Notes under the pieces: generated by a model
The model's input: only the letters and a program-made list of their open reading frames with translations
What the model was told of the DNA's origin: nothing
Databases searched by the model: none
Shown: positions 637 to 40,630 of the stretch, piece after piece
Position numbering within the stretch: the stretch's first letter is position 1
Layout of the letters: each line of letters begins with the position of its first letter
Origin: Gemmatimonadota bacterium
Lineage (GTDB): Bacteria; Gemmatimonadota; Gemmatimonadetes; Palauibacterales; Palauibacteraceae
Direction: 5' to 3'
Length of the DNA stretch: 64,000 nucleotides
NCBI GenBank assembly: GCA_022825725.1
Contig: JAJDWE010000001.1
Location: 7,243-71,242 of the forward strand
Made by a program: the position numbers and the translations under genes

Positions 637-1443
637 ATGAAGCTGCTGGTTATCGCCGGTCCGAACGGTGCCGGCAAAACGACGTTTTCACGACGATACC
701 TGCAGTTTGCAGGGGCCGAGATCCCGTTCGTAAACGGCGACGAAATCGCGGCAGGTTTGAATTCGGAAGCCCCCGAAGCGGCCGCGCAACAAGCTGGCCG
801 GATCGCGCTCAAGCGGATGGAATCATACGCGGCGCAGCGAATGGACTTCGCTTTCGAGACCACCCTGAGTGGCCGGAGCTATGCGCGCCGCCTCATCAGG
901 TGGCGTGAGCACGGCTACCGGATCGGCATGGTCTACCTTCGGCTCCCCTCGGCGCAACACGTCGTCAGACGGGTCGCGCGGCGCGTGCGCGAGGGCGGCC
1001 ACGACATCCCCGAGCCCGTCGCCCGCCGCCGGTTCGAGCGAAGCTGGCGCAACTTCGTCGAATTGTATCGCCCGATTGCAGATGAATGGCTGGTCTACGA
1101 CACTTCGAGCCGGTCCCCGACCCTCGTCGCCGCCTCGGAGCGGGCCGACATTCTGCCGCTGATTCCTGACCGTTGGCGCATGCGGGAGGTTCCGGCCGCG
1201 TCGGGCGCGGGCGTGCGGGAAGCGTCGGCCCGGCGAGATGATTCCACAGGGAGAGACGCCGTGACGAAGGATGCAACGCAGGCTCCGGACAGGTTCCCGG
1301 AGGGAGAGCCGTCGATCAAAAACGTGACGATGGCACTAATGCAAGCGCGCGACGACGCGCTGGCCCGCGCCGAGGCGGTTCGGCGACGCGACGCCGAGGC
1401 CGCGCAAGCTGAAAAGGCGTCGCCCGCCACAGAAGGCAGATAA
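637..1443 (+). CDS. zeta-toxin-family P-loop kinase/ATPase (COG4185-like) with a charged C-terminal extension of about 80 aa
   Basis: Walker [10 protein letters not shown] near the N-terminus. The core (about 185 aa: [22 protein letters not shown]...VNGDEIA...[10 protein letters not shown]...YLRLPS...[15 protein letters not shown]) looks like zeta/AAA kinase toxins. The tail ([14 protein letters not shown]...[20 protein letters not shown]) is low complexity. Confidence 0.7.
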
Positions 1444-1450
1444 CGGCACG

Positions 1451-2416
1451 ATGAATACAGAGACCGTCGTCATCATCGGCTCGGGCCCCGCGGCGTGGAC
1501 GGCGGCGATCTACGCGGCCCGGGCGAATCTCGGTCCGCTCGTGTTCGAGGGCGCGGGGAGCCGCACGATGATCCCCGGCGGACAGCTCATGTTCACGACG
1601 GATGTAGAGAACTATCCCGGTTTCCCCGAAGGGGTTAGCGGCATCGACATGATGTTGGACTTCAAGAAGCAGGCGGTGCGCTTCGACACGCGCGTCTTCA
1701 CCGAGGACATCGTCGAGGTGGACTTCTCCAATCGACCCTTCCTTCTGCGCTCGAGCGGGAAGCAGGAGGTGCGCGCGGAGACAGTGATCGTGGCGACGGG
1801 CGCCAACGCGCGCTGGCTGGGCGTGCCGGGCGAGGAACGGCTCGCGCAGAGCGGCGGCGGCGTATCCGCGTGCGCGGTGTGCGACGGCGCCCTGCCCGCC
1901 TTTCGGGACCAGGTTCTGGCCGTCGTCGGGGGTGGCGACAGCGCCATGGAGGAAGCGCTCTACCTCACGAAATTCGCGAGCGAGGTCCTGCTCATCCACC
2001 GGCGCGACGAACTGCGGGCCTCGCAGATCATGCAGGAGCGGGCCTTCGCCAGCGACAAGATCCGCTTCCTCTGGAACTCGACCGTGGAGGAGGTGCTGGG
2101 GGACGACGTGATCGTCGGCCTCCGCCTCCGCGACACCGTGTCGGGCGAGGCGTCCGAGATCGAGGTGGGCGGGATGTTCGTGGCCATCGGCCACATCCCC
2201 AACACGGAGTTCCTGCGAGGCCAGGTCGACCTCAAGGAGAACGGCTACGTGGAGATGCCCACACCGTGGCGGACGGAGACGAACGTGCCCGGCGTGTTCG
2301 CGGCCGGCGACGTCATGGACGACTACTACCGGCAGGCGGTGTCGGCGGCGGGCACGGGCTGCATGGCCGCGCTGGACGCCGAGCGCTTTCTCGCCCACAA
2401 CGGCGCCGGCGGCTGA
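1451..2416 (+). CDS. trxB: thioredoxin-disulfide reductase
   Basis: FAD motif [15 protein letters not shown], redox-active CAVCDG, NADPH motif [10 protein letters not shown]; 321 aa, typical TrxB length. Confidence 0.95.
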
Positions 2417-3241: not shown

Positions 3242-4771
3242 TCACCAGAAGATGATGTAGAGGACGGCCGCTCCCGCGATCACGCCTCCGGCCCAGAAGC
3301 CGGCGCGCGGGGCCGGTGTCAGATCCACGCCATCCGCGGTACGCGGCAGCCGGCGAGGGGCTGCGAGCGGACGTGCGCGGGTCACGAGGACGATCCAGGC
3401 GCTGATCGCGAGGAAGGTGATCGCCATGTGGTGGAGGAACGCGACCTCCGGCAGCAGCCACAGGAGGAGGCCGTAGACGGGGATCCCGAGCACCATCCCC
3501 CCGAAGGCCGCAACCGGCGGCGTGCGCGGCGCGAAGATGCCGAACAGGAACGCGGCCACGATCCCCGGCGAGATGAACCCCCAGAACATCTGGATGTACT
3601 CGAACACGCTCGGCGCCCGGGCCACGATCGGCGCCCACAGGCAGGCAACGACCGCGAGCACGCCCGTCGTCACGCGTCCCACCACCATCAGCCGCCGCGA
3701 CGAGGCACCGGGTCGCAGGTGCCGCTTGTAGAGGTCGACGCTGAAGATCGTCGCCGCCGAGTTCAGCATGGAGTCGAGCGAACTCATAACGGCCCCGAAC
3801 AGCGCCGCGAACATGAGGCCGGTCAGCCCGGCCGGGAGGAGTTCCCGCATCATCACGGGATAGGCCTGATCCGGGTGCGTCACCTGATCCGCGAACAGCT
3901 CCGCCGCCATGATCCCGGGGAAGATGATGATGAACGGGATCCCCAGCTTGATGAAGCCCGCCAGGAAGAGCCCCCGCTGCCCGTCCGCCAGGCTGCGCGC
4001 CGCGAGCGTGCGCTGCGTGATGAACTGGTTCAGTCCCCAGTAGAAGATGTTGGGGATCCACAGGCCGCCGATGAAGACGGCGAGCCACGGCATCTCGGGG
4101 TGGTTGAAGGGGAGGACCGTATGGAGCTTCCCGTCCGCCGCCTCGAGGAAGGGGCCGATGCCGCCCATGGCCCGGAACCCGAGGATGGTGACGAGCACGC
4201 CGCCGAGGAGGAGCGCGACGCCCTGGAGGAGGTCGGACCATACGACCGCCTTGAGTCCGCCGTAGATCGTGTAGCCGCCCGCGAGCACGCCGATGAGCCA
4301 GATGCCGGCCGACACATCGAGGCCGAAGATCGACTCCAGCGCGAGCGCGCCCGAGTACAGCACCGTCGCGAGGGCCACGAGCACGTACGCCGCGAGGATG
4401 AAGCCCGCCATCAGCGTGCGCGTGCGCACATCGTACCGGAACTCGAGGTACTCCGGGATGGTGTAGATCCCGGCCGCGAGAAACCGGGGGAGAAAAAAGA
4501 GGCCGACGAGGACGAGCGTGACGGCCGCCATCCATTCGTAGCTCGCGATCGCGAGGCCGATGTCGTAGCCCCGCCCCGCCATCCCCACGAAGTGCTCCGT
4601 GGAGGTGTTCGAGGCGATGAGCGAGAAGCCGATCAGCCACCACGGCAGGTTGCGCCCCGCGAGGAAGTATCCGGCCGCGTCGCGCCGCCCGCGCGAGGCG
4701 TAAAGCGACACCCCCACCACGAGCAGCAGAAACCCCGCAAAGGCCGCCACATCAAGCGGCTGAAAGGTCAT
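3242..4771 (-). CDS. sodium:solute symporter family (SSF/SGLT-like) transporter
   Basis: 509 aa, about 13 hydrophobic helices. The N-terminus YFLAGRNLPWWLIGFSLIASNTSTEHFVGMAG and GGLKAVVWSDLLQG are typical SSF signatures. Confidence 0.9.
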   Translation of the reverse strand: MTFQPLDVAAFAGFLLLVVGVSLYASRGRRDAAGYFLAGRNLPWWLIGFSLIASNTSTEHFVGMAGRGYDIGLAIASYEWMAAVTLVLVGLFFLPRFLAAGIYTIPEYLEFRYDVRTRTLMAGFILAAYVLVALATVLYSGALALESIFGLDVSAGIWLIGVLAGGYTIYGGLKAVVWSDLLQGVALLLGGVLVTILGFRAMGGIGPFLEAADGKLHTVLPFNHPEMPWLAVFIGGLWIPNIFYWGLNQFITQRTLAARSLADGQRGLFLAGFIKLGIPFIIIFPGIMAAELFADQVTHPDQAYPVMMRELLPAGLTGLMFAALFGAVMSSLDSMLNSAATIFSVDLYKRHLRPGASSRRLMVVGRVTTGVLAVVACLWAPIVARAPSVFEYIQMFWGFISPGIVAAFLFGIFAPRTPPVAAFGGMVLGIPVYGLLLWLLPEVAFLHHMAITFLAISAWIVLVTRARPLAAPRRLPRTADGVDLTPAPRAGFWAGGVIAGAAVLYIIFW

Positions 4772-4781
4772 TCGCGAAAGG

Positions 4782-5195
4782 TCAACCGTCCGGATATGCG
4801 AACGGGTTGAAGGTCTTCACGCCGAGTCGCTCGAAGTCCCGGACGTTGCGGGTCGCCACGGTCAGCCGGTTCGCGATGGCTGCGGCGCCGATCATGGCAT
4901 CCTGGAGGAGCGTATCCGATTGCCGGTGCATAAGCCTCGCCCATTCGCGGAACGTGGACGCGTCCACCGGCAGCACGTCGTACGTATCGAGCACCTTGTC
5001 GAGCCACGTCTCAAGTTCCGCGGCCTTGGCGGGATCCTGCTCGCGCGTGATTTCGATTCCGGCCTGAATCTCGCCGATCGTTACCGCGGACAGACGCAGA
5101 TCCGCGTCCGGAACCTCTCGAAACCACGCCAGAACGCCGCCGTGCGGTCTCGGACGCCGCAACTCCGAGACGATGTTCGTATCGAGCAGGAACAC
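4782..5195 (-). CDS. vapC: PIN-domain toxin (VapC/FitB-like)
   Basis: The GTG at 5195 is preceded by GGAG and lies 4 nt after the antitoxin stop. The product starts VFLLDTNIVSELRRPRP..., a classic VapC/FitB N-terminus, and later has TRNVRDFERLG. The track ORF 4782..5279 is over-extended. Confidence 0.8.
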   Translation of the reverse strand: MFLLDTNIVSELRRPRPHGGVLAWFREVPDADLRLSAVTIGEIQAGIEITREQDPAKAAELETWLDKVLDTYDVLPVDASTFREWARLMHRQSDTLLQDAMIGAAAIANRLTVATRNVRDFERLGVKTFNPFAYPDG

Positions 5196-5199
5196 TCCG

Positions 5200-5460
5200 C
5201 TATTCGAAGTCCGGGGCCGGCCGCTGCCGGATCTCGCGGCGTGGCGGCACGAGCGTGTCCGTACGGGCCTCCGGCGCAAGCAGCAGGTCCTTGAGGGTCG
5301 GCTTTGCCATCGTCTCCAATCGGCGCCAGTAGTCGACGGGAATCAGGACGGCGGTCTCGACCCCCCGTTTCGTGACAATCTGCGGTCCGTGCGTCAACGC
5401 GGTCTCAAGGAACGCGCTGAAGCGCGCCTTCGCTTCCTGAACCTGCCACGTGTTGTTCAT
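5200..5460 (-). CDS. Phd/YefM-family antitoxin
   Basis: MNNTWQVQEAKARFSAFLETALTHGPQIVTKRGVETAVLIPVDYWRRLE matches the Phd/YefM N-terminal fold pattern. GGAGGATCG sits directly before the ATG. Confidence 0.8.
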   Translation of the reverse strand: MNNTWQVQEAKARFSAFLETALTHGPQIVTKRGVETAVLIPVDYWRRLETMAKPTLKDLLLAPEARTDTLVPPRREIRQRPAPDFE

Positions 5461-5534: not shown

Positions 5535-5768
5535 CTAGCGCCCGGCGTCATTACGCAACGAGTCGCGGATGGCCTGCTGTGCTTCTTCGTGCAGGCTCAC
5601 GGGCACGCGGAGGACCTTCGCGGCCGCCGTCGGGCCCCAGGACACCGGCGCGAACTCGCCCTCGACCCTGAAGGGGATGTCGCGCGCCTCGAGGGCGAGC
5701 CTTGCCGCGAGGAGTTCCGTCTCGTCCCACGCCTCGAACACGCGGACCATGTCATCGCCGCGCGTCAT
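5535..5768 (-). CDS. DUF2007-like small protein (putative signal-transducing protein fold)
   Basis: The internal Met at 5768 overlaps the stop of the upstream OsmC-family gene (ATGA). The product MTRGDDMVRVFEAWDETELLAARLALEARDIPFRVEG...LRVPVSLHEEAQQAI resembles DUF2007. Confidence 0.55.
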   Translation of the reverse strand: MTRGDDMVRVFEAWDETELLAARLALEARDIPFRVEGEFAPVSWGPTAAAKVLRVPVSLHEEAQQAIRDSLRNDAGR

Positions 5769-6235
5769 GACCGAGTCGGCGTCTCTTCGATGTCGGCGGT
5801 CCACGTCACCTTGATCGCGCCCTCCAGCGAGCGGGCGGTGGGGCACTTCGCGCCGTGGCCGGCGAGCGCGCGGTCCACCGTCTCCCGAGCCTCGGCGGGA
5901 ATTCGGAGACGGTAGTGGACGATGATCTCCTCCAGCGTGGGCATGCGGTCGCGGAGGCGGTTGATCCCCTCCACTTCGGCGGCGATGTCTTCGGGGGCCA
6001 GGCGGATGCCGCGCACTTCCAGTGCGCCGTTGAGCGTGCCCAGCATTCAGGCGCCGGTCGCGGCCACCTGGTAGTCGACGGGGAGCGGCAGGTCCTTCGC
6101 GTCGATCCGGTAATGGGATTTGATGGGTCCGTGGACGCCGAAGTCGATCTCGGTCCCCTCTTCGAGGCGGGCCCGGCGGTGCACTCCCCCGACCTTCTCG
6201 AGACGCGCGCGGGCGGTGTAGAACGGTTCGGACAC
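5765..6235 (-). CDS. OsmC/Ohr/YhfA-family protein with an in-frame TGA (6049-6047) at the first conserved Cys position; candidate selenoprotein
   Basis: Track ORFs 6047..6337 and 5765..6046 share one frame and are separated only by a TGA. The start is proposed at GTG 6235, 6 nt after GGAG. The joined 156-aa product reads ...LPVDYQVAATGA[TGA]MLGTLNGALEVRGI...GHGAKCPTARSLEG..., which gives OsmC-family length and both conserved Cys regions. Confidence 0.6.
6011..6027 (-). promoter_or_regulatory. SECIS-like stem-loop downstream of the in-frame UGA
   Basis: The mRNA reads UGA, then 19 nt, then GCGCAC-UGGAA-GUGCGC (6-bp G/C-rich stem, 5-nt loop with G at loop position 2). Spacing and loop fit the loose bacterial SECIS description. 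Confidence 0.4.
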
Positions 6236-6361
6236 GACGTTCTCCTTGTTCTTCCTGTTCCCCTTCGTGGGCTCACCTTTACGGACGCGCCTTCCCTGCC
6301 GCATTTTCGGGCGGCGAGATTCGGGCGTGACGCGCAAACGAAACGATCGAGAGCGGCCAGA

Positions 6362-8179
6362 ATGACGTCAACCCGTGACAGGAATCGCCTTCCGGGTGGA
6401 GCGGCGGGCCGAGCCGCGGTTCTGATCCTCATGGCGGGCGGGATCGCGGCCTGCGAGCGGGGGTCGGCCGAAACGGCGGACCCGGCCCCATCCAGCGACC
6501 TTTCGGCGCTCAGCGACCGCTTCTGGGACGCCTATCTCTCCTGGAACCCGCTGCAGGCGACCTATCTGGGGGAACACCGCCTCAGCGACCGCGTTCGCGA
6601 CATCTCGCCGTCCGGGCGCAACAATCGCCGCCGCGAGGTTCGTGCCCTCGCCGATGCCCTCGCCGCCATCGACCTTGCCTCGCTGCCGCCCGGGAACCGG
6701 CTGACCTATCTCGCGCTCGACCATCAGCTCTCGGCGGAGGTCGCCGAGCAGACGTGCGATCTCGAGGTGTGGGTGGTGGACCACCGCGAGGGATTCCAGC
6801 TCGACTTCCTCAACATCGTGGGCGCCCAGCCGCTCGAGACACCGGTCGACGGCGAGCGCATGATCCGGCGCTGGAACGCGTTCGCGGACTACATCGACGA
6901 CTACATCTCGAACCTTCGCACCGGTCTCGAGACGGGTCGGGTCGCGGCGCGCCCGTCGGTGAACCGCACGATCGTGCAGCTCGAAGCCCTCCTCGAACGA
7001 CCGGTGGAGGAATGGCCCATCTACGCCCCGGCGGGGACGCGGCTCGATGCATGGCCCGAGGGAACGCGCCACGACTTCCGGGCCGGGATCCGCGAGGCCG
7101 CCTCCGAGCGCATTCAGCCGGCGTATGCGAGACTCCGAGACTTCCTGCGCGACGAACTCTATCCGCACTCGCGCACGGGCGCGGAGGTCGGACTCTCCAG
7201 CCTGCCGGGCGGCAGCGACTGCTACGAGGCGATGATCCGCACCTTCACCACGCTCGAACTGACGCCGGCGGAGATCCACGCGCGCGGTCTGGCGGAGCTG
7301 GAGAGGGTCCACGAGGAACTGCGGACCCTCGGACGGAAGGCTCTCGGCGCGGCCGATCTGAAAGAGCTTCAGCAGCGGCTGCGATCGGACCCGGAGATGT
7401 ACTTCCGCTGGCCGGGCGAGATCGTGCAGCAGGCGGAGGAGGCCTACCAGCGGGCGGCCCTCGTCATGCCCGACTGGTTCGGCACGCCGCCGCAGACGGA
7501 GATGGTGATCCGTCCGATCCCGCTGTACGAAGCGCCGCAGAGCCAGCTCGCCTACTACCGCGAGCCCGCGCCGGATGGATCGCGTCCCGGCACGTACTAC
7601 GTGAACACGTACCGGCCCGAGATCCGGCCCAGGTACCAGGCCGACGTCCTGAGCTTCCATGAGGCGATTCCGGGGCACCACCTTCAGACGTCGATCGCCC
7701 AGGAGGTCGAAGGTCTGCCCGAGTTCCGGAAGCACCTCGGTTCGATCGCCTTCGTCGAGGGGTGGGGGCTGTACGCGGAGCGACTCGCCGATGAAATGGG
7801 TCTCTACGCGGATGACCTGAGCCGCATCGGCCTGGCCTCGTACGATGCCTGGCGGGCCAGCCGGCTCGTCGTCGACACCGGCATCCACGCCTTCGGCTGG
7901 ACGCGGGAGGAGGCGGTCGACTTCGTCCGCGAGAACACGCTGCTCGCCGAAGTGAACATCGAGAACGAGGTGGACCGCTACATCACTTCGCCCGCCCAGG
8001 CGCTCACCTACAAGCTGGGGCAGCTCGAGATCTCGCGGCTGCGCCGGGAGGCCGAGGCCAGGCTCGGGGAGGCGTTCTCCATCGCGGAGTTCCACGACCG
8101 GGTGCTGGAGAACGGCGCGCTGAGCCTCCCCGCGCTCGGCGACGCGATCGAGAGCTGGCTCGCCGAGACCGCCAGCTAG
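6362..8179 (+). CDS. DUF885-family lipoprotein
   Basis: The start is taken at ATG 6362, an internal Met of track ORF 5855..8179. Signal peptide with lipobox-like LMAGGIAAC. It also has a DUF885-like N-terminal pattern (WDAYLSWNPLQATYLGEHRLSDR) and the HEAIPGHHLQ motif. Confidence 0.8.
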   Translation: MTSTRDRNRLPGGAAGRAAVLILMAGGIAACERGSAETADPAPSSDLSALSDRFWDAYLSWNPLQATYLGEHRLSDRVRDISPSGRNNRRREVRALADALAAIDLASLPPGNRLTYLALDHQLSAEVAEQTCDLEVWVVDHREGFQLDFLNIVGAQPLETPVDGERMIRRWNAFADYIDDYISNLRTGLETGRVAARPSVNRTIVQLEALLERPVEEWPIYAPAGTRLDAWPEGTRHDFRAGIREAASERIQPAYARLRDFLRDELYPHSRTGAEVGLSSLPGGSDCYEAMIRTFTTLELTPAEIHARGLAELERVHEELRTLGRKALGAADLKELQQRLRSDPEMYFRWPGEIVQQAEEAYQRAALVMPDWFGTPPQTEMVIRPIPLYEAPQSQLAYYREPAPDGSRPGTYYVNTYRPEIRPRYQADVLSFHEAIPGHHLQTSIAQEVEGLPEFRKHLGSIAFVEGWGLYAERLADEMGLYADDLSRIGLASYDAWRASRLVVDTGIHAFGWTREEAVDFVRENTLLAEVNIENEVDRYITSPAQALTYKLGQLEISRLRREAEARLGEAFSIAEFHDRVLENGALSLPALGDAIESWLAETAS

Positions 8180-8243: not shown

Positions 8244-9308
8244 ATGCGCTCTCTCGGCAGGATCCCGCGGCCCCGGGCCTTCCTGTGCCCAGGAGCGGAG
8301 CCTCGCGGCTTCGCGCTGCCCTCGGCCATGCTCACGCTGCTGCTCGTATCGCTCATGGCGGCGGGCGGTTTTCTCCTGACCTGGATCGACGGACAGTCCG
8401 CCCGCGCCTTCGCGCGTTCCACCGAGGCCTTCTACGTGGCCGAAAGCGGGCTCGCGACAGCGCTCGCGCTCGCCGAGATGCCAAACCCTTCCGTGCCGCC
8501 CCTCACGCTGGGCGTGGGAACCGCGACGGTCTCCTTCGAGCCGCTCCTCGAACTGCGGCGCGGAGAGACCGTGTACCGCGTAGAGTCCCGGGGACAGGTG
8601 GTCTACGGCGACGCAACCTTCGAACGGTCCGTGGGACAGCTTCTCTGGGTGGCCGGGCCGCCTCGGGTGCCCGGTGCGCTCGTCCTCGTGGGGAGTGCGG
8701 GCGCCATCCCTCCCAAGGGGACGATCTCGGGGCTCGATGCGTTCGGGAGCACCTGTCCGCAGCAGCCCTCGCCCGTAGCGGGCGTCGCGTACTGGGGCGG
8801 GCCGGCGCCGGCTCCGGATTCGACGTTGACGATCGCGGGGTCGCCCGCCGCACGATCGATGCCGGCCGGTGTGTCGGTAGCAGCCGAGACCGGCATCCGC
8901 TGGGCGGAGTTGCTCGCCGCGTTCGGCCCCATCCCCGACGCGACGGTGCCACCCGACACCTGGCCTGCCGCCGGCGCGGGCTCCCCCTACATCCGTATTC
9001 CCGGGTCGGGCTGGCTCGGCCCCGGTTCGAGCGGACGGGGCGCCCTGGTCGTGGAGGGGGACCTCACACTCGATGACGGCTTCGCCTGGACGGGGCTCAT
9101 CCTCGTGGGAGGCGCGCTGATCCTGAATGGGGACATCTCGGTCCAGGGAAGCGTGGCAAGCGGGCTCGCGGGGGGCGCAGGGGTCGCAGCGGACTTCGGC
9201 GGCCACCGCATCGATCTGCGCTTCAGCGCGTGCGCCGTCGCGGCGGCCGCCGAGGGGCTGACGGCGCCGGCAGCGGCGATGCCGGGCACGTGGTACGAAG
9301 TCTGGTAG
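8244..9308 (+). CDS. PilX-N-terminal-domain-like pilus assembly/minor pseudopilin-like protein
   Basis: RGFALPSAMLTLLLVSLMAAGGFLL...AFYVAESGL resembles the PilX_N hydrophobic N-terminus. The remainder is G/A/P-rich and beta-like (LVVEGDLTLDDGFAWTGLILVGGALILNGDISVQG). Confidence 0.5.
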   Translation: MRSLGRIPRPRAFLCPGAEPRGFALPSAMLTLLLVSLMAAGGFLLTWIDGQSARAFARSTEAFYVAESGLATALALAEMPNPSVPPLTLGVGTATVSFEPLLELRRGETVYRVESRGQVVYGDATFERSVGQLLWVAGPPRVPGALVLVGSAGAIPPKGTISGLDAFGSTCPQQPSPVAGVAYWGGPAPAPDSTLTIAGSPAARSMPAGVSVAAETGIRWAELLAAFGPIPDATVPPDTWPAAGAGSPYIRIPGSGWLGPGSSGRGALVVEGDLTLDDGFAWTGLILVGGALILNGDISVQGSVASGLAGGAGVAADFGGHRIDLRFSACAVAAAAEGLTAPAAAMPGTWYEVW

Positions 9309-10135: not shown

Positions 10136-10155
10136 GGAACGAAAGGTAACGGATC

Positions 10156-11166
10156 TTGAAGAATCTGTCGGCGTTCGAGCCGGCGCCGGGGCTCCGGAAT
10201 CCTCACCTGCAGACGGTGGTGGGACGGATGGTGCGCCGACGCACCGAGCCGCGGTACGAGCGGGTTCGGCTCGACACGGAAGATGGAGATTTCATCGATC
10301 TCGACCTCTGGCGGGGACCGGACACCCCGTCGGGTGCGTGCCTTCTTCTCCACGGGCTCGAAGGCAGCGCGCGCTCCGGATACATGGTGACGACGAGCGA
10401 GGCGCTGGAGGCCGCCGGCATCCAGGCCGTGGCGCTGAACTTCCGTTCGTGCAGCGGGGAGCCGAACCGCCTGCCGGGCGCCTACCACTCGGGTCGGACG
10501 GACGACATCGAGCGGGCGCTGGCCTGGATGGCGGCGCGTTACCGGGGCCTCCCGCGGACCGCGGTCGGGTTCTCGCTGGGCGGGAACGCGCTCCTCAACC
10601 TGCTCGGGCGCGAGGGTGGCGGCCGGGGTCTCGTCGCCGCAGCCGCCGTATCGGTCCCCTACGACCTCGAGGCCAGTGCCGATGCCCTGCAACGGGGGAT
10701 GGGGCGCGTGTACGGCCGGCGGTTCCTCCGCAGCCTGCGGGAGAAGGCCCGCGAGAAGGCGGCGAGGTTCCCGGACGTCGTGGCGCCCGGGGCGGCAAGG
10801 GCGCGAACGATCCGCGAGTTCGACGACCGGCTCACGGCGCCGATTCACGGCTTTCGCGACGCGGCCGACTACTACGCGCGCTGCAGCGCGAAACGTTTCG
10901 TCGACCCCGTGGCCCTTCCCATGCTCCTCGTCCACGCGCGGGATGATCCGCTCGCCCCAGGGAGTTCGGTGCCCATGGAAACGATCCGGCGACGCCCGAA
11001 CCTCTCCCTGGCACTCACGGAGAGAGGAGGACATCTCGGGTTCGTCGACCGGGGGCGCGGAAAGGTGCGGGCCGGCGCGCGGACCGGCTGGCTGGAAGAG
11101 ACCGTTTCCCGTTACATCTCGCGGGCCACGCACGGGACAACGCATCGGGTTTCCGGAGTGTTTTAA
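10156..11166 (+). CDS. YheT/ABHD1-3-like alpha/beta hydrolase
   Basis: N-terminal RNPHLQTV, LLLHGLEGS, nucleophile elbow GFSLGGN and DDPL region are typical of the COG0429 hydrolase group. TTG start as listed in the track. Confidence 0.8.
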   Translation: MKNLSAFEPAPGLRNPHLQTVVGRMVRRRTEPRYERVRLDTEDGDFIDLDLWRGPDTPSGACLLLHGLEGSARSGYMVTTSEALEAAGIQAVALNFRSCSGEPNRLPGAYHSGRTDDIERALAWMAARYRGLPRTAVGFSLGGNALLNLLGREGGGRGLVAAAAVSVPYDLEASADALQRGMGRVYGRRFLRSLREKAREKAARFPDVVAPGAARARTIREFDDRLTAPIHGFRDAADYYARCSAKRFVDPVALPMLLVHARDDPLAPGSSVPMETIRRRPNLSLALTERGGHLGFVDRGRGKVRAGARTGWLEETVSRYISRATHGTTHRVSGVF

Positions 11167-11214
11167 GTGGTTTGTACGACTATTGCCCGCAACCTTCAGG
11201 ATGGGAGTCATCTC

Positions 11215-13614
11215 ATGCGCGGATTTTCTCGAGTCGCGGCCCTTGCGGCCGCCTTCGCCTGCCTGGCCACGCCCGTCACGGGACAGGGTTTCGGACGAGG
11301 CCTCGCCGTCGCGGTGTCGTCCGACCAGGTCCTCATTGCCGAGACCGGCGGCCCGACGTCGACGGGAGCCGTCTACGTATACGAACGAGGCCAGGACGGA
11401 TGGGCCCTCTCCGCGGAACTCGCGCCCTACGCGGCGGAGGAGGGCGGCAGCTTCGGAATTTCGCTCGCGGTCGATGGCGACCGCATGCTCGTCGGCTCGC
11501 CCGGCGCGGCCCATGTCTTCGAGCGAGCCGGCAGAGGCTGGGAGGAAGCCGCAACTCTGAGGCCGGCCGACCTGCCGGAGGGTTACGTCTTCGGCGCCGG
11601 CGGGGCGATCGCGGGCGACCTCGCGCTGGTGGCGGCGCCGGGTCAGGGGGGCCGCGGGCGACCCGGTGCGGCCGGGCGCGTCTACCTCTTCGAATGGGAC
11701 GGCTCCGCGTGGAATGAAGCCGGAGTCATCGAATCGCCCGAGGCGGCCAACGGAGACGGCTTCGGCGCCGCGATGATCACCGACGGCCGGGTGGCGGCGA
11801 TCGGCGCTCCCGGAACCGCCGTGGGCAGCGTGAACCGCGCCGGCGCGGTCTTCTTCTTCACGCGGGCGGATGACGGGACCTGGGCGGCGGCGCCCGAACC
11901 CCTCACCGCGCCGGACGCGAGCGAGAACGCGGGCTTCGGGGGCGTCCTTTACGGCGAGGACACAGCGGAGGGCTTCCGGCTCGTCGTCGGAGCCCCCGGC
12001 GCCGGGGGCGTCGGCATCGCCTACACGTTCACTCCCGATGGCGATGCCTGGAGGCCCGAAGGCCGGCTCTATCCGCCGGTCGTCGCCGGGGGCGGCCGAT
12101 CCTTCGGCGGGAACTTCGCCAACGCCTTCGCGGCCGTGGGCGGAGAGATCTGGATCGGCGGGTCCGGCTCCGGTGCGGGCCGCGAGGGGCGGGTGCTTCG
12201 CTACTCGACCGACCCCGACGGCGGCGTCGAGCTCGCCGGCGCGGTCTCCGCCTCGAACCGGGCCGCGGGCGACGGCTTCGGCGGCAGCCTCGCCGCGCAG
12301 GGCGACGTCGCGGTCGTCGCGGCGAGCCGCAAGGACTACGGGATGGGGACCGCCTACATCTTCGAGCGGCGGGGCGACGAGTGGGTCGAAACCGCCGAGG
12401 TGTGGAGCGACGCGACAAACTACGCGGCGATCAACGGTCACGAGGTGGGCTGCGAGGAAGGGGTGTCGGCCGACTTCGACTGCAGCGAGGTGAACATCCT
12501 CTCCTTCATGCCGGTGCAGTCGCTCGGGGCGAACCGCGGCGTCCGCGTCAACGACGTGTGGGGCTGGACCGATCCGCAGACCGGTCGCGAGTACGCCCTC
12601 GTGGGGCTCACCGACCAGGCTTCGTTCATCGACATCACCGACTCGCAGAACCCGCGCTACATCGGGCGTCTTCCGATGACGGAGGGCGCGCGCGGCAGCG
12701 TGTGGCGGGACATCAAGGTCTTCAGCGATCATGCCTTCATCGTTTCCGACGGGGCGGGCGACCACGGGATGCAGGTGTTCGACCTCTCGCGCCTCCGAGA
12801 GGTGGGGAGCGAGCCGGTCACCTTCGAGGCGGACGCCCACTACGACGGGATCGCGTCCGCGCACAACATCGTGATCAACGAGGAGACGGGTTTCGCCTAC
12901 AGCGTGGGATCGAGCGGCGGGGGCGAGACGTGCGGTGGCGGCCTCCATATGATCGACATCAGCGAGCCGACGGAGCCGAGCTTCGCCGGCTGCTTCGGTC
13001 ACGAGGGCACGGGGCGCCGCGGCACCGGATACTCGCACGACGCGCTCTGCCTCATCTATGACGGCCCGGACCGCGAGCACGCCGGCAAGGAGATCTGCTT
13101 CGGATCGAACGAGACGGACGTCTCGATCGCCGACGTCACCGACAAGGACAATCCGATCCCCCTGTCGACGGCCACGTACGCGAACGTCGCCTACGCCCAC
13201 CAGGGCTGGGTGACGGAAGATCACCGTTTCTTCTACCTGGGAGACGAACTCGACGAACTGAGGACGCAGTTCTCGGGTACGCGGACGATGATCTTCGACA
13301 TCACCGACCTCGACGACCCCGTCCTCGTGAAGGAGCACTTCGGCGAGTCGACGGCGAGCGACCACAACATGTACGTGCTCGGCGACCTGCTCTATCAGTC
13401 GAACTACAACAGCGGACTCCGGATCCTGAACGTGAGCGACCCGGAGAATCCGGTCGAGGTCGGCTTCCTCGACACCGTGCCTCACGCGGAGGGCCCGGCG
13501 ATGGGCGGCTCGTGGAGCAACTATCCGTACTTCGCGAGCGGGACGATCATCGTGACGAGCGGGAGCGAGGGCCTGTTCATGGTGAAGTACCAGAAACCGG
13601 AGCTCGTGCCGTAA
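11215..13614 (+). CDS. secreted two-propeller protein: FG-GAP-like repeats + choice-of-anchor-B/LVIVD-type propeller (paralog A)
   Basis: Start at the Met giving signal peptide MRGFSRVAALAAAFACLATPVTGQ. About 7 repeats of FG..(L/V)A..GD.(L/V).VGAPG...GAVY(V/L)FE....W. The C-terminal 430 aa (NDVWGWTDPQTGREYALVG...HAFIVSDGAGDHGMQVFDL...GGLHMIDIS...QGWVTEDHRFFY...NYNSGLRILNVSDPENP) matches the choice-of-anchor-B family as I remember it. Confidence 0.8.
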   Translation: MRGFSRVAALAAAFACLATPVTGQGFGRGLAVAVSSDQVLIAETGGPTSTGAVYVYERGQDGWALSAELAPYAAEEGGSFGISLAVDGDRMLVGSPGAAHVFERAGRGWEEAATLRPADLPEGYVFGAGGAIAGDLALVAAPGQGGRGRPGAAGRVYLFEWDGSAWNEAGVIESPEAANGDGFGAAMITDGRVAAIGAPGTAVGSVNRAGAVFFFTRADDGTWAAAPEPLTAPDASENAGFGGVLYGEDTAEGFRLVVGAPGAGGVGIAYTFTPDGDAWRPEGRLYPPVVAGGGRSFGGNFANAFAAVGGEIWIGGSGSGAGREGRVLRYSTDPDGGVELAGAVSASNRAAGDGFGGSLAAQGDVAVVAASRKDYGMGTAYIFERRGDEWVETAEVWSDATNYAAINGHEVGCEEGVSADFDCSEVNILSFMPVQSLGANRGVRVNDVWGWTDPQTGREYALVGLTDQASFIDITDSQNPRYIGRLPMTEGARGSVWRDIKVFSDHAFIVSDGAGDHGMQVFDLSRLREVGSEPVTFEADAHYDGIASAHNIVINEETGFAYSVGSSGGGETCGGGLHMIDISEPTEPSFAGCFGHEGTGRRGTGYSHDALCLIYDGPDREHAGKEICFGSNETDVSIADVTDKDNPIPLSTATYANVAYAHQGWVTEDHRFFYLGDELDELRTQFSGTRTMIFDITDLDDPVLVKEHFGESTASDHNMYVLGDLLYQSNYNSGLRILNVSDPENPVEVGFLDTVPHAEGPAMGGSWSNYPYFASGTIIVTSGSEGLFMVKYQKPELVP

Positions 13615-14741
13615 TGGGGATCGCAGCGCTCTTGCCACGAGTTGCCGGCGCCGCGCGGTCCGGCCTCCTCGCCCTGGGGATGGCCGGACTCGTGGCCGTG
13701 CGGGCTGCCGCCGCGGTGGACGTGGCCGCCGCCTCCGCCGAAGGTCCGTTCCTCTACGTGGCGAACCAGGAGGCGGCTGCCGTGACCGTGATCGACCTCG
13801 AAACGCACGAGGTCGTCGAGGTCATCGACCTGGAGGCCATGGGGTACGGGGCGAACGCGAAACCGCACCACGTCGCGGTCGAGCCGGACGGATCGTTCTG
13901 GTACGTGTCGCTCATCGCGGCCAATCAGGTGCTCAAGTTCGACCGCGACAACGAACTCGTCGCCTCCGTCGAGTTCGAGCGGCCGGGCCTCCTCGCGCTC
14001 CACCCCTCGGAGCCGTGGCTCTTCGTCGGGCGGTCAATGGCCGCGGTGAACCCGCCGCAGCGCATCGGCCGCATCGACCGGATGTCGATGGAAGTCGAGG
14101 AATACGACGTCTTCATCCCGCGCCCGCACGCGCTGTTGGCGAGCCCCGACGGCGGGTGGGTCTACGCGGGCAGCCTGGGGGAGAACTCCGTCGTCACGGT
14201 CGAAGCGGAGAGCGGCGAGGCGGAGTTGCTCAGGCTTCCCGGTTCCGGGGCGATGCCCCACGTACTCGTGCAATACGCGATCTCCCCGGACGGCGAGACG
14301 CTCGTCGCAACAGCGGAGATGACCGCCAAGCTCCTCGTATTCGACGTCACGGAGCCGGCGGCGCCGAAGCTCGTGGGGGAGCTGGACGTGGGGGCGCGGC
14401 CGTGGCACCCGAGCTGGTCGGCGGACGGGCGCTGGATCTGGTTCGGCAACCTGGGCGCGAACGAGGTCACGCTCGTCGACACGTCCGACTGGTCCGTGGC
14501 CGCCGTGATTCGGGGCGAAGGCCTCGCCGAACCGCACGGCAGCGTGCTCTCGCCGGACGGATCCCGACTGTACGTGGCGAACCGGAACGAGACCGGCTCC
14601 TACGACTCGTCGGACCGGATGGGATACGACGCCCCGGGCGGCACGGTCGTCGTCATCGACACCGCGACCCGGGAGATCGTCGACGTCATCGAGACTCCGC
14701 CCTACGCGTCGGGCATCGGTCTCGCCTCCAGCCCGCGCTGA
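13614..14741 (+). CDS. secreted YVTN/YncE-type beta-propeller protein
   Basis: The ATG at 13614 overlaps the upstream TAA (TAATG). Signal peptide, then repeated units (LYVANQEAAAVTVIDLETHEVV, HHVAVEPDGSFWYVS, VYAGSLGENSVVTVEAESGE, LYVANRNETGS..VVVIDTATREIV) typical of YVTN repeats. Confidence 0.7.
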   Translation: MGIAALLPRVAGAARSGLLALGMAGLVAVRAAAAVDVAAASAEGPFLYVANQEAAAVTVIDLETHEVVEVIDLEAMGYGANAKPHHVAVEPDGSFWYVSLIAANQVLKFDRDNELVASVEFERPGLLALHPSEPWLFVGRSMAAVNPPQRIGRIDRMSMEVEEYDVFIPRPHALLASPDGGWVYAGSLGENSVVTVEAESGEAELLRLPGSGAMPHVLVQYAISPDGETLVATAEMTAKLLVFDVTEPAAPKLVGELDVGARPWHPSWSADGRWIWFGNLGANEVTLVDTSDWSVAAVIRGEGLAEPHGSVLSPDGSRLYVANRNETGSYDSSDRMGYDAPGGTVVVIDTATREIVDVIETPPYASGIGLASSPR

Positions 14742-14754
14742 GGGCCCCGGCGAC

Positions 14755-16677
14755 GTGAACCGCATGGCCGGACCCCAGAGCCCGCGGGCCGCGCCGGCCG
14801 CGCTGACCGCGGCACTCCTCGCGGCAGGATGCGCCTCGGGCGGCATCGGCCCGGGCGAGCTGGCGCCGGAGCGCGCAGCCGGCGACGAAACCGGATTCGT
14901 CCGCGCCGTCACCCCCTTTCCGGTGTTCGACGAATCGGGGAACGCGTACGAAATCCCCTTCCTGGGCGGCTTCAACGTCCCGCGCCCGCAGTGGGTGGAT
15001 ATCGACGGAGATGGCGACCTCGACCTCTTCGTGCAGGAGAGGACGGACCGCCTGCTGTTCTTCGAGCGCGAAGACACGCCGGACGGACGGCGCCACACCT
15101 GGCGGCCGGCTGCGTACTCGGATCTTGAGGTCGGGGAGTGGTTCCGCTTCGTCGATGTCGACGCCGACGGAGACCGGGACCTCCTCGCGGAGTCGCCCTT
15201 CAGCTACATGAAGCTCTATCGGAACACGGGCTCCGCGGGCGGCGCCGAATTCGAACTCATCGCGGACACCCTCCGCGACACGCGCGGGGAAGCGATCTTC
15301 TCGGATCGCCAGAACATTCCCAATGCGGCAGACATCGACTGCGACGGCCGCCTCGACCTCTTCATCGGTCGCCTCGTGGGGACGGTCACTCGCTACGAGG
15401 CCACCGGCGCGATCGGCGCGAACGCCTCGCCCTTCCGGCACATCACGGATCGCTTCGAGGACATCGAGATCGTCGCCGACCCGGCGGCGGCCGGGGGCGT
15501 GCCGCCCTTCGACGGGCCGGACGCGGGCGGGCCCTTCCCCACCCTGCACGGGGCGAACACGATGGCGCTCGCCGACTACGACGCGGACGGCGACACGGAC
15601 ATGTTCTGGGGCGACTTCTTCGAGGCCGGACTCCTCCTGATCGAGAACGCGGGCTCGTGCGAAGCTCCGAACCTCCGCGTGGAGCCGCGTCCCTTCCCCC
15701 TCGACGATCCGATCCGGACGAGCGGCTACAACGCCCCGACCTTCGGCGACTACGACGGCGACGGCGACCTCGATCTGCTCATGGGCGTGCTCGGCGGCGC
15801 GTACAACGCGAACACGACGACCGCCGACAACCTCATGCTCTTCTCCCAGGAGTCCGATGGCGGCTTCGAGCTTCGGACGCGCCGCTTCATCTCGCAGATC
15901 GATGTGGGCAGCGAGAGCGTGGCTTCGCTGGTGGATCTCGACGGCGACGGCGATCTCGACATGCTCCTCGGAAACAAGATCGACCCGGGGGACCTGTCGA
16001 ACTCGCGCGTCTTCCTGTTCGAGAACGAGGGGAGCGGGACGCGGCCGATCTACCGCCGGACCGGCGAGTTCGAGTTGCCGGGCGCCTACCACAACGCACC
16101 GGCCTTCGGCGACCTGGACGCGGACGGCGACCTCGACCTGCTGCTCGGCACCTGGCGCGACGAGATCCGCTACGTGCGGAACGAGGGGTCGGCCATGGAA
16201 CCCCGCCTCACTCTCGTGGACTCGGCGTTCGTCGAGATCACGCGCGGGAGCAACGCGACGCCCGCGCTCGGCGACCTCGACGGCGATGGCGATCTCGACC
16301 TCATGATCGGGGAGTCCTCGGGGGCGCTGAACTACTACGAGAACGTCGGCTCCCCCGCAGAGCCGAGCTTCGAATTCGTGAGCGACGAATACGCGGAGAT
16401 CGACATCGGCCGGCGGAGCTTCCCCAAGCTCCTCGACCACGACGGGGACGGCGACCTCGACCTCGTCGTCGGTACGGAATCCGACGGGATCCGCTACTTC
16501 CGGAACGATGGGAGTCCCGCGGCCGCGAACTTCGTTGAAGCCGACGGCGGCTTCCCCGCCCCCGAGGATCTGCCGCTGTTCGCGACGCCGGAATTCGGGG
16601 ATCTGGACGGGGACGGCGACCTCGACCTCGTCGTCGGCGCCGCAGGGGGGGGCATCTACTACTTCGAACGACGTTGA
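14755..16677 (+). CDS. FG-GAP/VCBS-repeat lipoprotein
   Basis: GTG start and lipobox-like LLAAGC. About 10 repeats carry (V/G)D(I/L/Y)D(G/A)DGDLDL followed by Y.N.G....F motifs. Confidence 0.8.
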   Translation: MNRMAGPQSPRAAPAALTAALLAAGCASGGIGPGELAPERAAGDETGFVRAVTPFPVFDESGNAYEIPFLGGFNVPRPQWVDIDGDGDLDLFVQERTDRLLFFEREDTPDGRRHTWRPAAYSDLEVGEWFRFVDVDADGDRDLLAESPFSYMKLYRNTGSAGGAEFELIADTLRDTRGEAIFSDRQNIPNAADIDCDGRLDLFIGRLVGTVTRYEATGAIGANASPFRHITDRFEDIEIVADPAAAGGVPPFDGPDAGGPFPTLHGANTMALADYDADGDTDMFWGDFFEAGLLLIENAGSCEAPNLRVEPRPFPLDDPIRTSGYNAPTFGDYDGDGDLDLLMGVLGGAYNANTTTADNLMLFSQESDGGFELRTRRFISQIDVGSESVASLVDLDGDGDLDMLLGNKIDPGDLSNSRVFLFENEGSGTRPIYRRTGEFELPGAYHNAPAFGDLDADGDLDLLLGTWRDEIRYVRNEGSAMEPRLTLVDSAFVEITRGSNATPALGDLDGDGDLDLMIGESSGALNYYENVGSPAEPSFEFVSDEYAEIDIGRRSFPKLLDHDGDGDLDLVVGTESDGIRYFRNDGSPAAANFVEADGGFPAPEDLPLFATPEFGDLDGDGDLDLVVGAAGGGIYYFERR

Positions 16678-16692
16678 ATCCCGTAGAAAAGG

Positions 16693-22190: not shown

Positions 22191-22428
22191 GCGTTCTCCG
22201 TGCGACGTGACGTCTCAAGGCGGCTGCGCACCTGCGGTCAGTCAAGATAGCGTCGTGCTGCAGAAATCCGCGAGCTAACAGCCCATGGCAAAAAGCCCTG
22301 CCGCGTTCGAGCGGCGAACCACGCCGCCGGGGTTCACGCTGCGGAGCCGTGCGGGTAGATTCGACCCGTCCGCGCGGATCGACCGCGCACCGACGGGATG
22401 CAGCGGAAGCGAGTAAGGAAGGCGTCAT

Positions 22429-22905
22429 ATGCCGGTTGAAATCACCGGATACTGGCTCGCCAAGACCGAGCCTCACGTGTACTCGATCGACGACTTCGCC
22501 CGGGACGGCGAGACGGAATGGGACGGCGTGCGGAACTACCAGGTCCGGAACTTCATGCGCGACCGGATGAACCCGGGGGAGAAGGTCCTCATCTATCATT
22601 CCAACACCCGGGTGCTCGGCGTCTACGGCGTCGCGGAAGTCGCGGGTCCGGCGCACCCGGACTCCACCCAGTTCGACCCCGACAGCCATTACTTCGACCC
22701 GAAATCGAGCCGCGAGAATCCCCGTTGGTGGTGCCCCGATTTCCGCTACGTGGAGACCTTCGGGACGCCGGTGACCCGGCAGATGATGAAAGAAGCGGCC
22801 GGCCTCGAGACTATTAATGTGATGAAACGCGGCATGCGACTCTCGGTTATGCCGGTGACGGAGGAGGAGTTCGAGATCATCCTCCGTCTGGGGCGTGGAG
22901 AATAG
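22429..22905 (+). CDS. EVE (PUA-like) domain protein
   Basis: YWLAKTEPHVYSIDDF...WDGVRNYQVRNFMRDRMNPGEKVLIYHSN is a typical EVE domain. AAGGAAGG lies upstream of the ATG. Confidence 0.85.
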   Translation: MPVEITGYWLAKTEPHVYSIDDFARDGETEWDGVRNYQVRNFMRDRMNPGEKVLIYHSNTRVLGVYGVAEVAGPAHPDSTQFDPDSHYFDPKSSRENPRWWCPDFRYVETFGTPVTRQMMKEAAGLETINVMKRGMRLSVMPVTEEEFEIILRLGRGE

Positions 22906-22923
22906 GAGAAACAGAGGCACGCC

Positions 22924-23472
22924 ATGTTCTGGTTCCTGATCGGACTCGCGGCAGTCGCCTTCATCATCATCGGGATGTACAACAGTCTCGTGCGGCTGCG
23001 CGTGCGCGTGAACGGCGCCTGGGCCGACATCGACGTCCAGCTCAAGCGCCGCTGGGACCTCATCCCCAACCTCACGAGGACGGTGGAGGCGTCCGCGGGC
23101 CACGAACGTGAGACGCTCGAGGCCGTGGTCGAGGCGAGGAACCGGGCCATGGGTGCGCGGGGGCCCGCCGAGGCGGGTGCGGCGGAGGGGGCGCTCGCGG
23201 TGGCGCTCGGAAGGCTCTTCGCGCTTTCGGAGGCTTATCCCCAGCTGCGGGCGGTCGAGGCGTTCACCGACCTCCAGCGCTCCCTCGACGAGATCGAGGA
23301 GGCGGTGCAGAACGCGCGACGCTATTACAACGCCGTCGTCCGGGACTACAACACGAAGACGCAGGTCTTCCCGACGAATCTGCTCGCCGGGATGTTCGGT
23401 CACACGCGCCGGGAGTTCTTCTCGCTCGACGACGAGCGGCAGCGCGAGGGGCCGGAGGTGGCGTTCTCGTGA
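22924..23472 (+). CDS. lemA: LemA family protein
   Basis: N-terminal TM helix followed by YNSLVRLRVRVNGAWADIDVQLKRRWDLIPNL...YPQLRA...FTDLQRSLDEIE...RRYYNAVVRDYN. Confidence 0.9.
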   Translation: MFWFLIGLAAVAFIIIGMYNSLVRLRVRVNGAWADIDVQLKRRWDLIPNLTRTVEASAGHERETLEAVVEARNRAMGARGPAEAGAAEGALAVALGRLFALSEAYPQLRAVEAFTDLQRSLDEIEEAVQNARRYYNAVVRDYNTKTQVFPTNLLAGMFGHTRREFFSLDDERQREGPEVAFS

Positions 23473-25271: not shown

Positions 25272-25284
25272 CGTGGCTACCAGC

Positions 25285-25755
25285 ATGAAGATCTCGGTCG
25301 GCGACCGCGCGCAGCCGTTCACGCTGCCTTACGAAGCCGGAGGAACGATCGATCTGGGGGACTACCTCGGCCGTGACCGGATCGTGCTCCTCTTCTTCCC
25401 TCTTGCTTTCACCTCGGTCTGCACGGCCGAGATGTGCCGGCTCCGGGATGGGTGGAGCGCCTACGCGTCGCTCGACGCCGCCGTGTTCGCGATCTCCGTG
25501 GACAGCCCGTTCGTCACCTCGCGATTCAGGGCCGAGGAGAGCATCCCCTTCCCCATCCTCTCCGATTTCAACCGCACGGTTTCACGTGACTGGGGCGTGC
25601 TGTACGAGGAGTTTCACGGATTCCAGGGCGTCTCCAAGCGGTCGGCTTTCGTGATCGGGACGGACGGCAAGGTGGCGTACGCGTGGGTGTCGGAGGACGC
25701 GGGCGTCGAACCGGACTATGAGGAACTCCTGCAAGCGGTTGCCGACGCACCCTGA
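25285..25755 (+). CDS. peroxiredoxin (AhpC/TSA family, AhpE/BCP-like)
   Basis: LLFFPLAFTSVCTAEMC carries the peroxidatic Cys motif (T..C). SVDSPF...FPILSDF... is also typical. Start taken at the internal ATG at 25285 (MKISVGDRAQPF). Confidence 0.85.
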   Translation: MKISVGDRAQPFTLPYEAGGTIDLGDYLGRDRIVLLFFPLAFTSVCTAEMCRLRDGWSAYASLDAAVFAISVDSPFVTSRFRAEESIPFPILSDFNRTVSRDWGVLYEEFHGFQGVSKRSAFVIGTDGKVAYAWVSEDAGVEPDYEELLQAVADAP

Positions 25756-27376: not shown

Positions 27377-27382
27377 CGACCC

Positions 27383-37385: not shown

Positions 37386-37398
37386 CTCGGGGTCTCCC

Positions 37399-40592: not shown

Positions 40593-40630
40593 GCCGTCGC
40601 CCTCATGCCGTCGCCTTCATGCCGTCGCCC
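40589..40630. repeat. three tandem copies of a 14-nt unit at the HDAC-like/menF junction
   Basis: + strand: TCACGCCGTCGCCC / TCATGCCGTCGCCT / TCATGCCGTCGCCC. On the minus strand this reads GGGCGACGGCATGA AGGCGACGGCATGA GGGCGACGGCGTGA. Confidence 0.9.

Follow-up and report, generated by a model that had tools for sequence, protein, structure and literature searches.

An OsmC-family gene of Gemmatimonadota with a conserved in-frame UGA that is probably read as selenocysteine

In the 64-kb stretch of a Gemmatimonadota bacterium contig that is analysed here (JAJDWE010000001.1; hereafter the window, meaning the whole stretch of 64,000 nucleotides), two open reading frames (ORFs) on the minus strand, 6047..6337 and 5765..6046, lie in one frame with a lone TGA between them (6049-6047). 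This raises the question whether the TGA ends one gene, marks a broken gene or is read as a sense codon. We conclude, with a probability of about 0.92, that 6235..5765 is one gene for a 156-residue thiol peroxidase of the OsmC/Ohr superfamily in which UGA is read as selenocysteine (Sec). The analysis thus supports the selenoprotein interpretation of an initial annotation, which had been based on a TGA at the first redox Cys and a hairpin resembling a selenocysteine insertion sequence (SECIS).

Read through the TGA, the joined minus-strand gene comprises 156 codons from a GTG at 6233..6235 (V/M-SEPFYTARARL...), which is preceded at a distance of 6 nt by a Shine-Dalgarno-like AAGGAG (6242..6247). 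The homologues of 152-157 aa likewise begin at MSEPFY. Residues 2-62 (6050..6232) form the N-terminal part of the OsmC domain and residues 64-156 (5768..6046) the C-terminal part. Residue 63, between them, is the in-frame UGA (6047..6049), with the translation around it being ...DYQVAATGA[TGA]MLGTLNGALEVRGI.... At the other end, the TGA stop of the joined gene (5765..5767) overlaps the ATG of the next ORF (5768-5766) in an ATGA. The G+C content at third codon positions is 0.80 upstream of the TGA and 0.88 downstream of it, both within the range of the other coding ORFs of the window. Our reading of the sequence agrees with the initial annotation in all these respects, namely the two ORFs in one frame split by a TGA, the GTG start and the length of the product, the third-position bias towards G/C in both halves, and the overlap with the next gene. 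Within the window, a single TGA that splits two coding-like ORFs of the same frame occurs only at this gene. Given this and the recurrence of the TGA in related genes (see below), the arrangement goes well beyond what chance would produce.

To which family does the joined product belong? With Cys placed at the TGA, it matches the Pfam OsmC model (PF02566) with E = 1e-11 and 45.6 bits against a gathering score of 27.5; the C-terminal half alone matches only a part of that model. AlphaFold2 models the joined 156 residues with very high confidence (predicted local distance difference test, 95.8; predicted template modelling score, 0.87) as one complete OsmC/Ohr fold, which superposes over ~150 columns on Ohr and OsmC crystal structures with template modelling scores of 0.66-0.77. 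Among the PDB matches listed by Foldseek (top 50), all are Ohr/OsmC-family or OsmC-like structural-genomics entries. Based on the model and its superposition on the Ohr and OsmC structures, we conclude that the two ORFs encode one domain.

The TGA stands at a catalytic position of this fold. Of the 14 alignment rows that reach across its column, 12 have Cys there (GGCMLGTL; ...AATGGC-MLGTL...), and the full-length homologues have their first Cys at this position. The profile of the alignment finds Thermus thermophilus OsmC (PDB 1ukk), where the TGA column pairs with the Cys of AAHAGC, and Cys131 of KCPTA is aligned to the Cys of EGCPVS. In E. coli OsmC and in Ohr, this aligned pair corresponds to the peroxidatic (first) and the resolving (second) cysteines. 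The protein has both positions of the OsmC/Ohr two-cysteine arrangement, with the predicted Sec63 as the first and Cys131 as the second. The codon of Cys131 is a TGC at 5843..5845, and the residue, presumably the resolving one, lies in a nearly invariant column (GAKCPTA). Both assignments, the TGA at the first redox Cys and a second family Cys retained downstream, had already been proposed from the single sequence.

Next, we consider how the TGA is conserved. A scan with one genome per GTDB species gave 341 relatives, of which the best 80, from 80 species and 61-97% identical, were analysed. Another 80 loci came from a scan of metagenomes that started from a Cys-form alignment; in total, 168 related loci were fetched. 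All 80 best GTDB-species loci have TGA at the Sec codon. Despite the Cys-form query, 78/80 metagenome loci also have TGA and only 2/80 have TGC, so that the overall tally of related genes is 159/161 for TGA and 2/161 for TGC. These best 80 GTDB relatives are mostly Gemmatimonadota, the closest being Ca. Palauibacter sponge symbionts; on a Ca. Palauibacter chromosome (NZ_OZ253465.1) the gene is 96% identical.

In the ~154 loci with full coverage of the gene, neither half contains an extra in-frame stop or a frameshift. The amino-acid identity to the window gene is 0.73 in the N-terminal half and 0.73 in the C-terminal half, and the divergence at third codon positions exceeds that at first and second positions to the same extent in both (0.43 vs 0.18 and 0.42 vs 0.17, respectively). 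These values indicate that both halves are under equal purifying selection. As judged by sequence comparison, the UGA is thus shown to be translated through and not terminated at.

Some of the related loci show peculiarities of their own. The closest full-length homologue, on a Logan contig of SRR34348099 (L168; protein P0001), has GGA (Gly) at the Sec codon (548-550), together with an intact hairpin of the rare GCGUGC/GCACGC variant; the GGA reflects either a T-to-G error, the unitig being of low coverage, or an inactivating change of very recent date. At a JGI locus (L167, Ga0643532_0110110), the DNA has TGA at the Sec codon, whereas the corresponding database entry (protein P0033) shows a Trp and is flagged as not matching the translation of its DNA. 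Apparently the source translated TGA as Trp, which is a second route of mis-annotation for this family. The Gemmatimonadota metagenome-assembled genome (MAG) chromosome OY762926.1 (L014) contains, at ~9076-9200, a second, truncated OsmC segment that reads ..AAGA-TGA-MLGTLIGALEVRGIRLDP.. and then runs into stops. It lies ~2.9 kb downstream of the intact gene, near a Phd/PIN module, and looks like a duplicated gene fragment with the UGA and the hairpin region. Lastly, a contig labelled Gammaproteobacteria bacterium SB0662_bin_11 (VXNP01000066.1; 93% identity, E 1e-92 in tblastn) has the same match statistics and the same synteny (DUF885, sodium:solute symporter, thioredoxin reductase) as a Ca. 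Palauibacter irciniicola contig and is probably a mis-binned Gemmatimonadota contig.

If the UGA is translated, is there a signal that could specify selenocysteine? The candidate is the element GCGCACU-GGA-AGUGCGC at 6027-6011, which begins 19 nt after the UGA, where the initial annotation had pointed out a hairpin that seemed compatible with a SECIS. Its 5' arm is GCGCACU (6027-6021), its apical loop GGA (6020-6018) and its 3' arm AGUGCGC (6017-6011), and it codes for part of the peptide G-A-L-E-V-R. The published consensus of the bacterial SECIS (bSECIS) comprises a loop of 3-9 nt, an upper stem of 4-16 bp, a distance of 16-37 nt from the UGA to the loop and a minimum free energy of at most -7.5 kcal/mol (PMC13188914). 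In the loop, a G is found in the first two positions, typically as N1-G-[G/U]-N-N2 with N1 and N2 paired (PMC13188914). The element fits this consensus, with a loop of GGA (or U-GGA-R with U and R paired), a stem of 7 bp, a spacing of 26 nt to the apical loop and a folding energy of -11.3 kcal/mol. This energy is that of the 21-nt element and corresponds to z = -3.5 compared to shuffled sequences.

The hairpin is further supported by covariation. Across 142 distinct Sec-form sequences, aligned without gaps, 99.2% of the stem cells are paired, compared to 20-70% in controls with the 3' arm displaced by 1-3 columns, and neither the observed paired percentage nor the covariation score was reached in any of 500 shuffles. 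RNAalifold predicts exactly the same helix from this alignment. Compensatory changes occur at three stem pairs. In 12 sequences a G-C pair is exchanged with C-G, where a change from Gly GGC to Ala GCC is always accompanied by a synonymous change from Arg CGC to CGG. In 24 sequences an A-U pair is exchanged with G-C, where Val GUG is changed to Ala GCG together with a synonymous change from Ala GCA to GCG. In one sequence (L160), Ala and Val are swapped across the stem and the adjacent C-G pair has become U-A. The loop bases G36 and G37 are invariant. Thus, the proposed compatibility of the hairpin with a SECIS holds up in the published criteria, in covariation and, as described in the following, in constraint on synonymous sites.

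Several results nevertheless weigh against reading the element as a SECIS and the UGA as selenocysteine. The stem lies within a highly conserved peptide, GALEVR, and this alone inflates the paired percentage. For this reason, we compared the codon choice at the hairpin with that in the rest of the same genes. The Ala codon at +8 is GCA in 103/140 sequences (74%) and GCC in 0/140, compared to 6% and 44%, respectively, in the background of the same genes. Val at +11 is encoded by GUG in 118/118 sequences (background 49%), Leu at +9 by CUG in 140/141 (42%) and Gly at +7 by GGC or GGU in 130/130 (65%). The invariant G that opens the loop is the third base of this Leu codon, and Arg CGG at the hairpin is confined to the sequences that have Ala GCC opposite (12/12). 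The synonymous-site and compensatory changes are what separates a constraint on the RNA from a constraint on the protein.

A second point concerns the thermodynamics. Folds of 50-66 nt, in a context of 69% GC, are no more stable than shuffled sequences (z = -0.03 and -0.21), and the minimum-energy fold of 50 nt is a different, lineage-specific pairing. As the energies of these longer folds are not significant, the hairpin rests on the comparative evidence and on the 21-nt fold. A scan of the window at the Rfam gathering thresholds gave no match, which a bSECIS embedded in a coding region is not expected to give. The Cys forms serve as a control that comprises only 8 DNAs (TGC or TGT). Four of these have 2-3 broken stem pairs, and 6/8 use CUC for Leu, by which the loop G is lost. 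This decay of the stem looks like a SECIS that is relaxing after the replacement of Sec by Cys.

The third point concerns the Sec machinery. Using E. coli SelA, SelB and SelD sequences as tblastn queries, we found no selA, selB or selD in the 64-kb window or in the fetched related loci (160 loci searched; ~1.3 Mb). Apparent SelB matches were obtained in 6 loci; the two ORFs inspected (in L033 and L072) are translation initiation factor IF-2 (MGHVDHGKT...ITQHIGAY). ARAGORN detected no tRNA-Sec: it predicted no tRNA at all for the window, and a single one, a tRNA-Asn, for the 80 GTDB loci. Likewise, the Pfam annotation of ~37 window ORFs includes no selenium-related gene. Sec-machinery genes have been reported from related genomes: the Gemmatimonadetes bins bin43 and bin94 of the sponge Aplysina aerophoba carry the corresponding COGs, with one copy each of COG1921 (SelA), COG3276 (SelB) and COG0709 (SelD) (Slaby et al. 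2017, Table S4; PMC5649159). We also searched for further selenoprotein candidates as coding-like ORF pairs split by a single TGA. Besides the OsmC gene, ~20 such pairs were found in the window and 167 loci, none of them with a redox motif or recurrent conservation.

Weighing these results together, we propose the following decoding and mechanism. The UGA would be decoded as selenocysteine, and the hairpin would be a bacterial SECIS through which SelB-GTP-Sec-tRNA(Sec) is brought to the ribosome. Homology to OsmC and Ohr suggests Sec63 as the peroxidatic residue that attacks the hydroperoxide. A selenenyl-sulfide between Sec63 and Cys131 (KCPTA) would then form and might be reduced by a thiol or dihydrolipoyl donor. 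Gene callers halt at the UGA and restart at the conserved Met64, which produces the two artificial ORFs.

An alternative explanation is that the locus encodes two polypeptides, a view that is implicit in the current database annotation. Translation would terminate at the UGA (6049-6047) and re-initiate at the adjacent AUG (6046) by UGAAUG coupling, and the resulting products of 62 and 93 aa may assemble non-covalently. An AUG indeed follows the UGA directly in most members, and public databases hold halves of 93 aa and 85 aa as separate proteins. However, Met64 is a family residue that also follows the Cys in Cys forms (CMLGTL), and in six distinct Sec-form sequences, which stem from six or more loci, the codon at this position is CUA or CUG for Leu, so that no AUG is available for a restart. 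Reading the sequence upstream of 6046, we found no Shine-Dalgarno motif. Furthermore, the split would remove the catalytic residue and leave a covarying hairpin with an invariant loop GG without a role, whereas the Cys-form relatives are single chains of 152-157 aa. We thus consider two polypeptides very improbable. The initial annotation had itself raised the case of orthologues that are two separately translated genes; the Leu after the UGA in some orthologues, the equal rates of both halves and the single-domain model point to one chain instead.

We regard it as equally improbable that a near-cognate or suppressor tRNA inserts a standard amino acid (Trp, Cys, Gly or Arg) at the UGA, in a read-through that is stimulated by the hairpin and independent of Sec machinery. 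Such read-through would agree with the result that Sec machinery was not found in the DNA examined, with the GGA next to an intact hairpin in L168, and with the Trp in the database protein of L167, although the DNA of the latter is TGA. It is difficult to reconcile with the strong purifying selection on the gene, as Trp, Gly or Arg at the catalytic Cys would inactivate the enzyme. Moreover, the loop sequence, the size and the spacing of the hairpin are those of a SelB-type bSECIS, and the sole natural alternative to TGA is Cys (TGC or TGT), which is the classic pattern of Sec/Cys pairs. SelA, SelB and SelD are reported in the related sponge Gemmatimonadetes bins, and TGA is an ordinary stop throughout the window.

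Finally, a change from TGC or TGT to TGA in a decaying OsmC gene, or a sequencing or assembly error, would fit a lone in-frame stop in a single sequence, which resembles a recent nonsense mutation, and is effectively excluded since the same TGA is found in 159/161 independent assemblies, which span 61-97% identity and are too divergent to be copies of one sequence, frameshifts and further stops are absent, and both halves are under equal purifying selection in their codon positions. The independent assemblies also bear, if indirectly, on the read support for TGA versus TGC/TGT that the initial annotation had asked for. A reassignment of TGA in the genetic code was rejected because TGA ends most genes of the window, being the commonest stop among its coding-like ORFs.

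We now turn to the genomic surroundings of the selenoprotein candidate. Divergently upstream lies a gene for a DUF885 protein (6368-8176), which is syntenic in 35 loci. The downstream ORF of 77 aa (5535..5768, minus strand), which is coupled to the OsmC gene through the ATGA overlap, has no Pfam or NCBIfam match and is conserved immediately downstream in 14 loci, all of the Palauibacter type. Further downstream, a sodium:solute symporter is encoded at 3245-4771. Between it and the OsmC operon, at 4785-5460 on the minus strand, lies a pair of a Phd/YefM antitoxin and a PIN-domain toxin. Among the related loci, Phd was detected in only 14 and PIN in 9. As full-length matches are found in only some close Palauibacter genomes, and there at varying distances from the OsmC gene, the data suggest that the pair is a mobile insertion.

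As for other thiol-redox genes, a thioredoxin-disulfide reductase (1340-2413, plus strand; TIGR01292, 375 bits, above the cut-off) is encoded 3.3 kb from the OsmC gene. Synteny between the two genes is seen in 16 Palauibacter-type loci, and a further, weak match to the reductase (28%) is found in L064. The window also contains an AhpC/TSA peroxiredoxin gene (25159-25752, plus strand). The screen for ORF pairs split by a single stop flagged no in-frame TGA in either of these two genes, and no dedicated reductant partner is evident near the OsmC gene.

The Cys-form loci (L161, L162 and L163) have a different neighbourhood. A cluster of COX15, UbiA and cytochrome c oxidase genes is found on one side (absent from the shorter flank of L163), and a GHL15 glycosyl-hydrolase-like gene and a squalene/phytoene synthase are found on the other. 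The Cys forms appear to be a lineage separate from the Sec forms.

Elsewhere in the window, three large proteins with FG-GAP repeats (815, 722 and 824 aa) and a leucine-rich-repeat protein of 1078 aa are encoded on the plus strand at 11167-19158 and 27377-30610; these are of a eukaryote-like repeat type, as reported from sponge symbionts. A menaquinone-type cluster on the minus strand (34094-40616) comprises MenF-like chorismate-binding, MenD-like thiamine-diphosphate-dependent, MenB-like enoyl-CoA hydratase family and MenE-like AMP-binding enzymes, and is adjoined by a class-V aminotransferase (32866-34152). Four other coding-like ORF pairs of the same frame (10150-13614, 22417-23472, 26087-30613 and 53969-55645) are split by TAA or TAG. 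Three of these were rejected as split genes and are ordinary neighbours, as their domains are unrelated (EVE/LemA, AstE-like/leucine-rich repeat, and M24 peptidase/elongation factor P). The fourth is a hydrolase followed by an FG-GAP protein, with a TAA at 11164-11166.

How is the gene represented in public databases? Its relatives there are of two kinds, full-length proteins of 152-157 aa and fragments of 89-101 aa that start at the Met after the TGA. The fragments come from Gemmatimonadota and Ca. Palauibacter MAGs, under the names 'OsmC family protein' and 'hypothetical protein'. The gene is stored as fragments in at least 159 public loci, RefSeq complete Ca. Palauibacter chromosomes among them, namely as a 93-aa 'OsmC family protein' that is sometimes accompanied by an 85-aa hypothetical protein. 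Besides NZ_OZ253465.1, the complete Ca. Palauibacter chromosomes with this gene include NZ_OZ244907.1, NZ_OZ250143.1 and OZ220691.1. The annotation error is systematic, and every database copy therefore lacks the active-site residue. In the genomic papers on Palauibacterales and Gemmatimonadota that we examined, we found no mention of selenium or OsmC.

OsmC-like selenoproteins as such are already known. The Sargasso Sea survey introduced an OsmC-like protein (COG1765/PF02566, motif UxxT) as a new family of selenoproteins on the basis of 3 sequences (Zhang, Fomenko & Gladyshev 2005; PMC1088965), and the 2008 survey of the Global Ocean Sampling data listed 5 Sec sequences compared to 161 Cys homologues (PMC2398784). 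The statement of the initial annotation that such Sec/Cys pairs are listed in surveys of marine metagenomes was thus correct. The family is also listed in reviews of 2022 and 2026. As the mechanism is canonical and OsmC-like selenoproteins are known, we regard the gene as a new member of a known selenoprotein type; it leaves the present understanding of selenoprotein function as it is.

The window protein nevertheless falls outside the curated family. The model NF041052, 'OsmC-related (seleno)protein' (OsmC_like_Se), is the best NCBIfam match for the window protein and for 15/15 tested relatives. The window protein scores 19.7 bits against a cut-off of 95 bits, and the 15 relatives are also far below the cut-off, with E values from 1.6e-7 to 0.01 (e.g. 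P0014, 23.8 bits, E 3.5e-5). This low score would explain why annotated genomes contain the 93-aa fragment. In place of the UxxT motif, the window protein has U-M-L-G-T (UxxxT), with the Thr at +4. The equivalog models of OsmC (TIGR03562) and Ohr (TIGR03561) do not match the window protein at E <= 0.01; weak matches are found in 6 and 2 of the 15 relatives, respectively (best E 3e-5 and 3e-4). The gene would thus function in the manner of the known OsmC-like selenoprotein but arguably belongs to a separate, Sec-dominated OsmC subfamily that fails the curated membership.

A wider reading goes beyond the single gene, and we give it an even chance. It holds that this is a distinct OsmC subfamily that is almost obligately Sec-containing (~99% TGA in 161 genes), that its SECIS co-evolves with the helix peptide, and that selenium use in the phylum is largely unrecognised. 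The subfamily would be spread over Gemmatimonadota and some MAGs with an Acidobacteriota label, with sponges, soils and sediments as the sources, and the substitutions of Gly by Ala, Ala by Val and Val by Ala would be tied to the pairing of the RNA. If this is true, the gene could be a main reason why Gemmatimonadota keep the Sec machinery, and the systematic split in RefSeq and GenBank would be the cause of selenium use in Gemmatimonadota being largely unrecognised. For both sponge-symbiont and free-living Gemmatimonadota, the results indicate a use of selenium in peroxide defence. In addition, the locus offers an unusually clean case of a covariation-supported SECIS, in which amino-acid changes in a helix are linked to the pairing of bases in the RNA signal that overlaps its codons.

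When comparing the gene to known systems, we find that it shares with the OsmC-like selenoprotein family the PF02566 domain, a Sec in place of the first redox Cys, the occurrence of Sec/Cys pairs and a bacterial SECIS directly downstream of the UGA. In contrast to that family, where the published Sec forms are rare, the ratio of Sec to Cys in our sample is 159:2, and the main source of the Sec forms is Gemmatimonadota that live in sponges, soils and sediments. Compared to the structures of OsmC and Ohr (E. coli OsmC, 1nye/1qwi; T. thermophilus OsmC, 1ukk; Ohr, 1n2f/6ebg), the full-length fold (template modelling scores of 0.6-0.77) and both catalytic positions are alike, whereas the identity is only 11-22% and the first Cys is replaced by the predicted Sec. 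Lastly, the hairpin resembles the SECIS of E. coli fdhF and the bSECIS model in being a coding-region hairpin past the UGA with a small loop that starts with G-G, a spacing within 16-37 nt and a stable upper stem. It differs from the fdhF element in that there is no sequence similarity and no lower stem adjoining the UGA that is conserved across the family, and in that its stem is built almost wholly from the codons of a conserved helix peptide.

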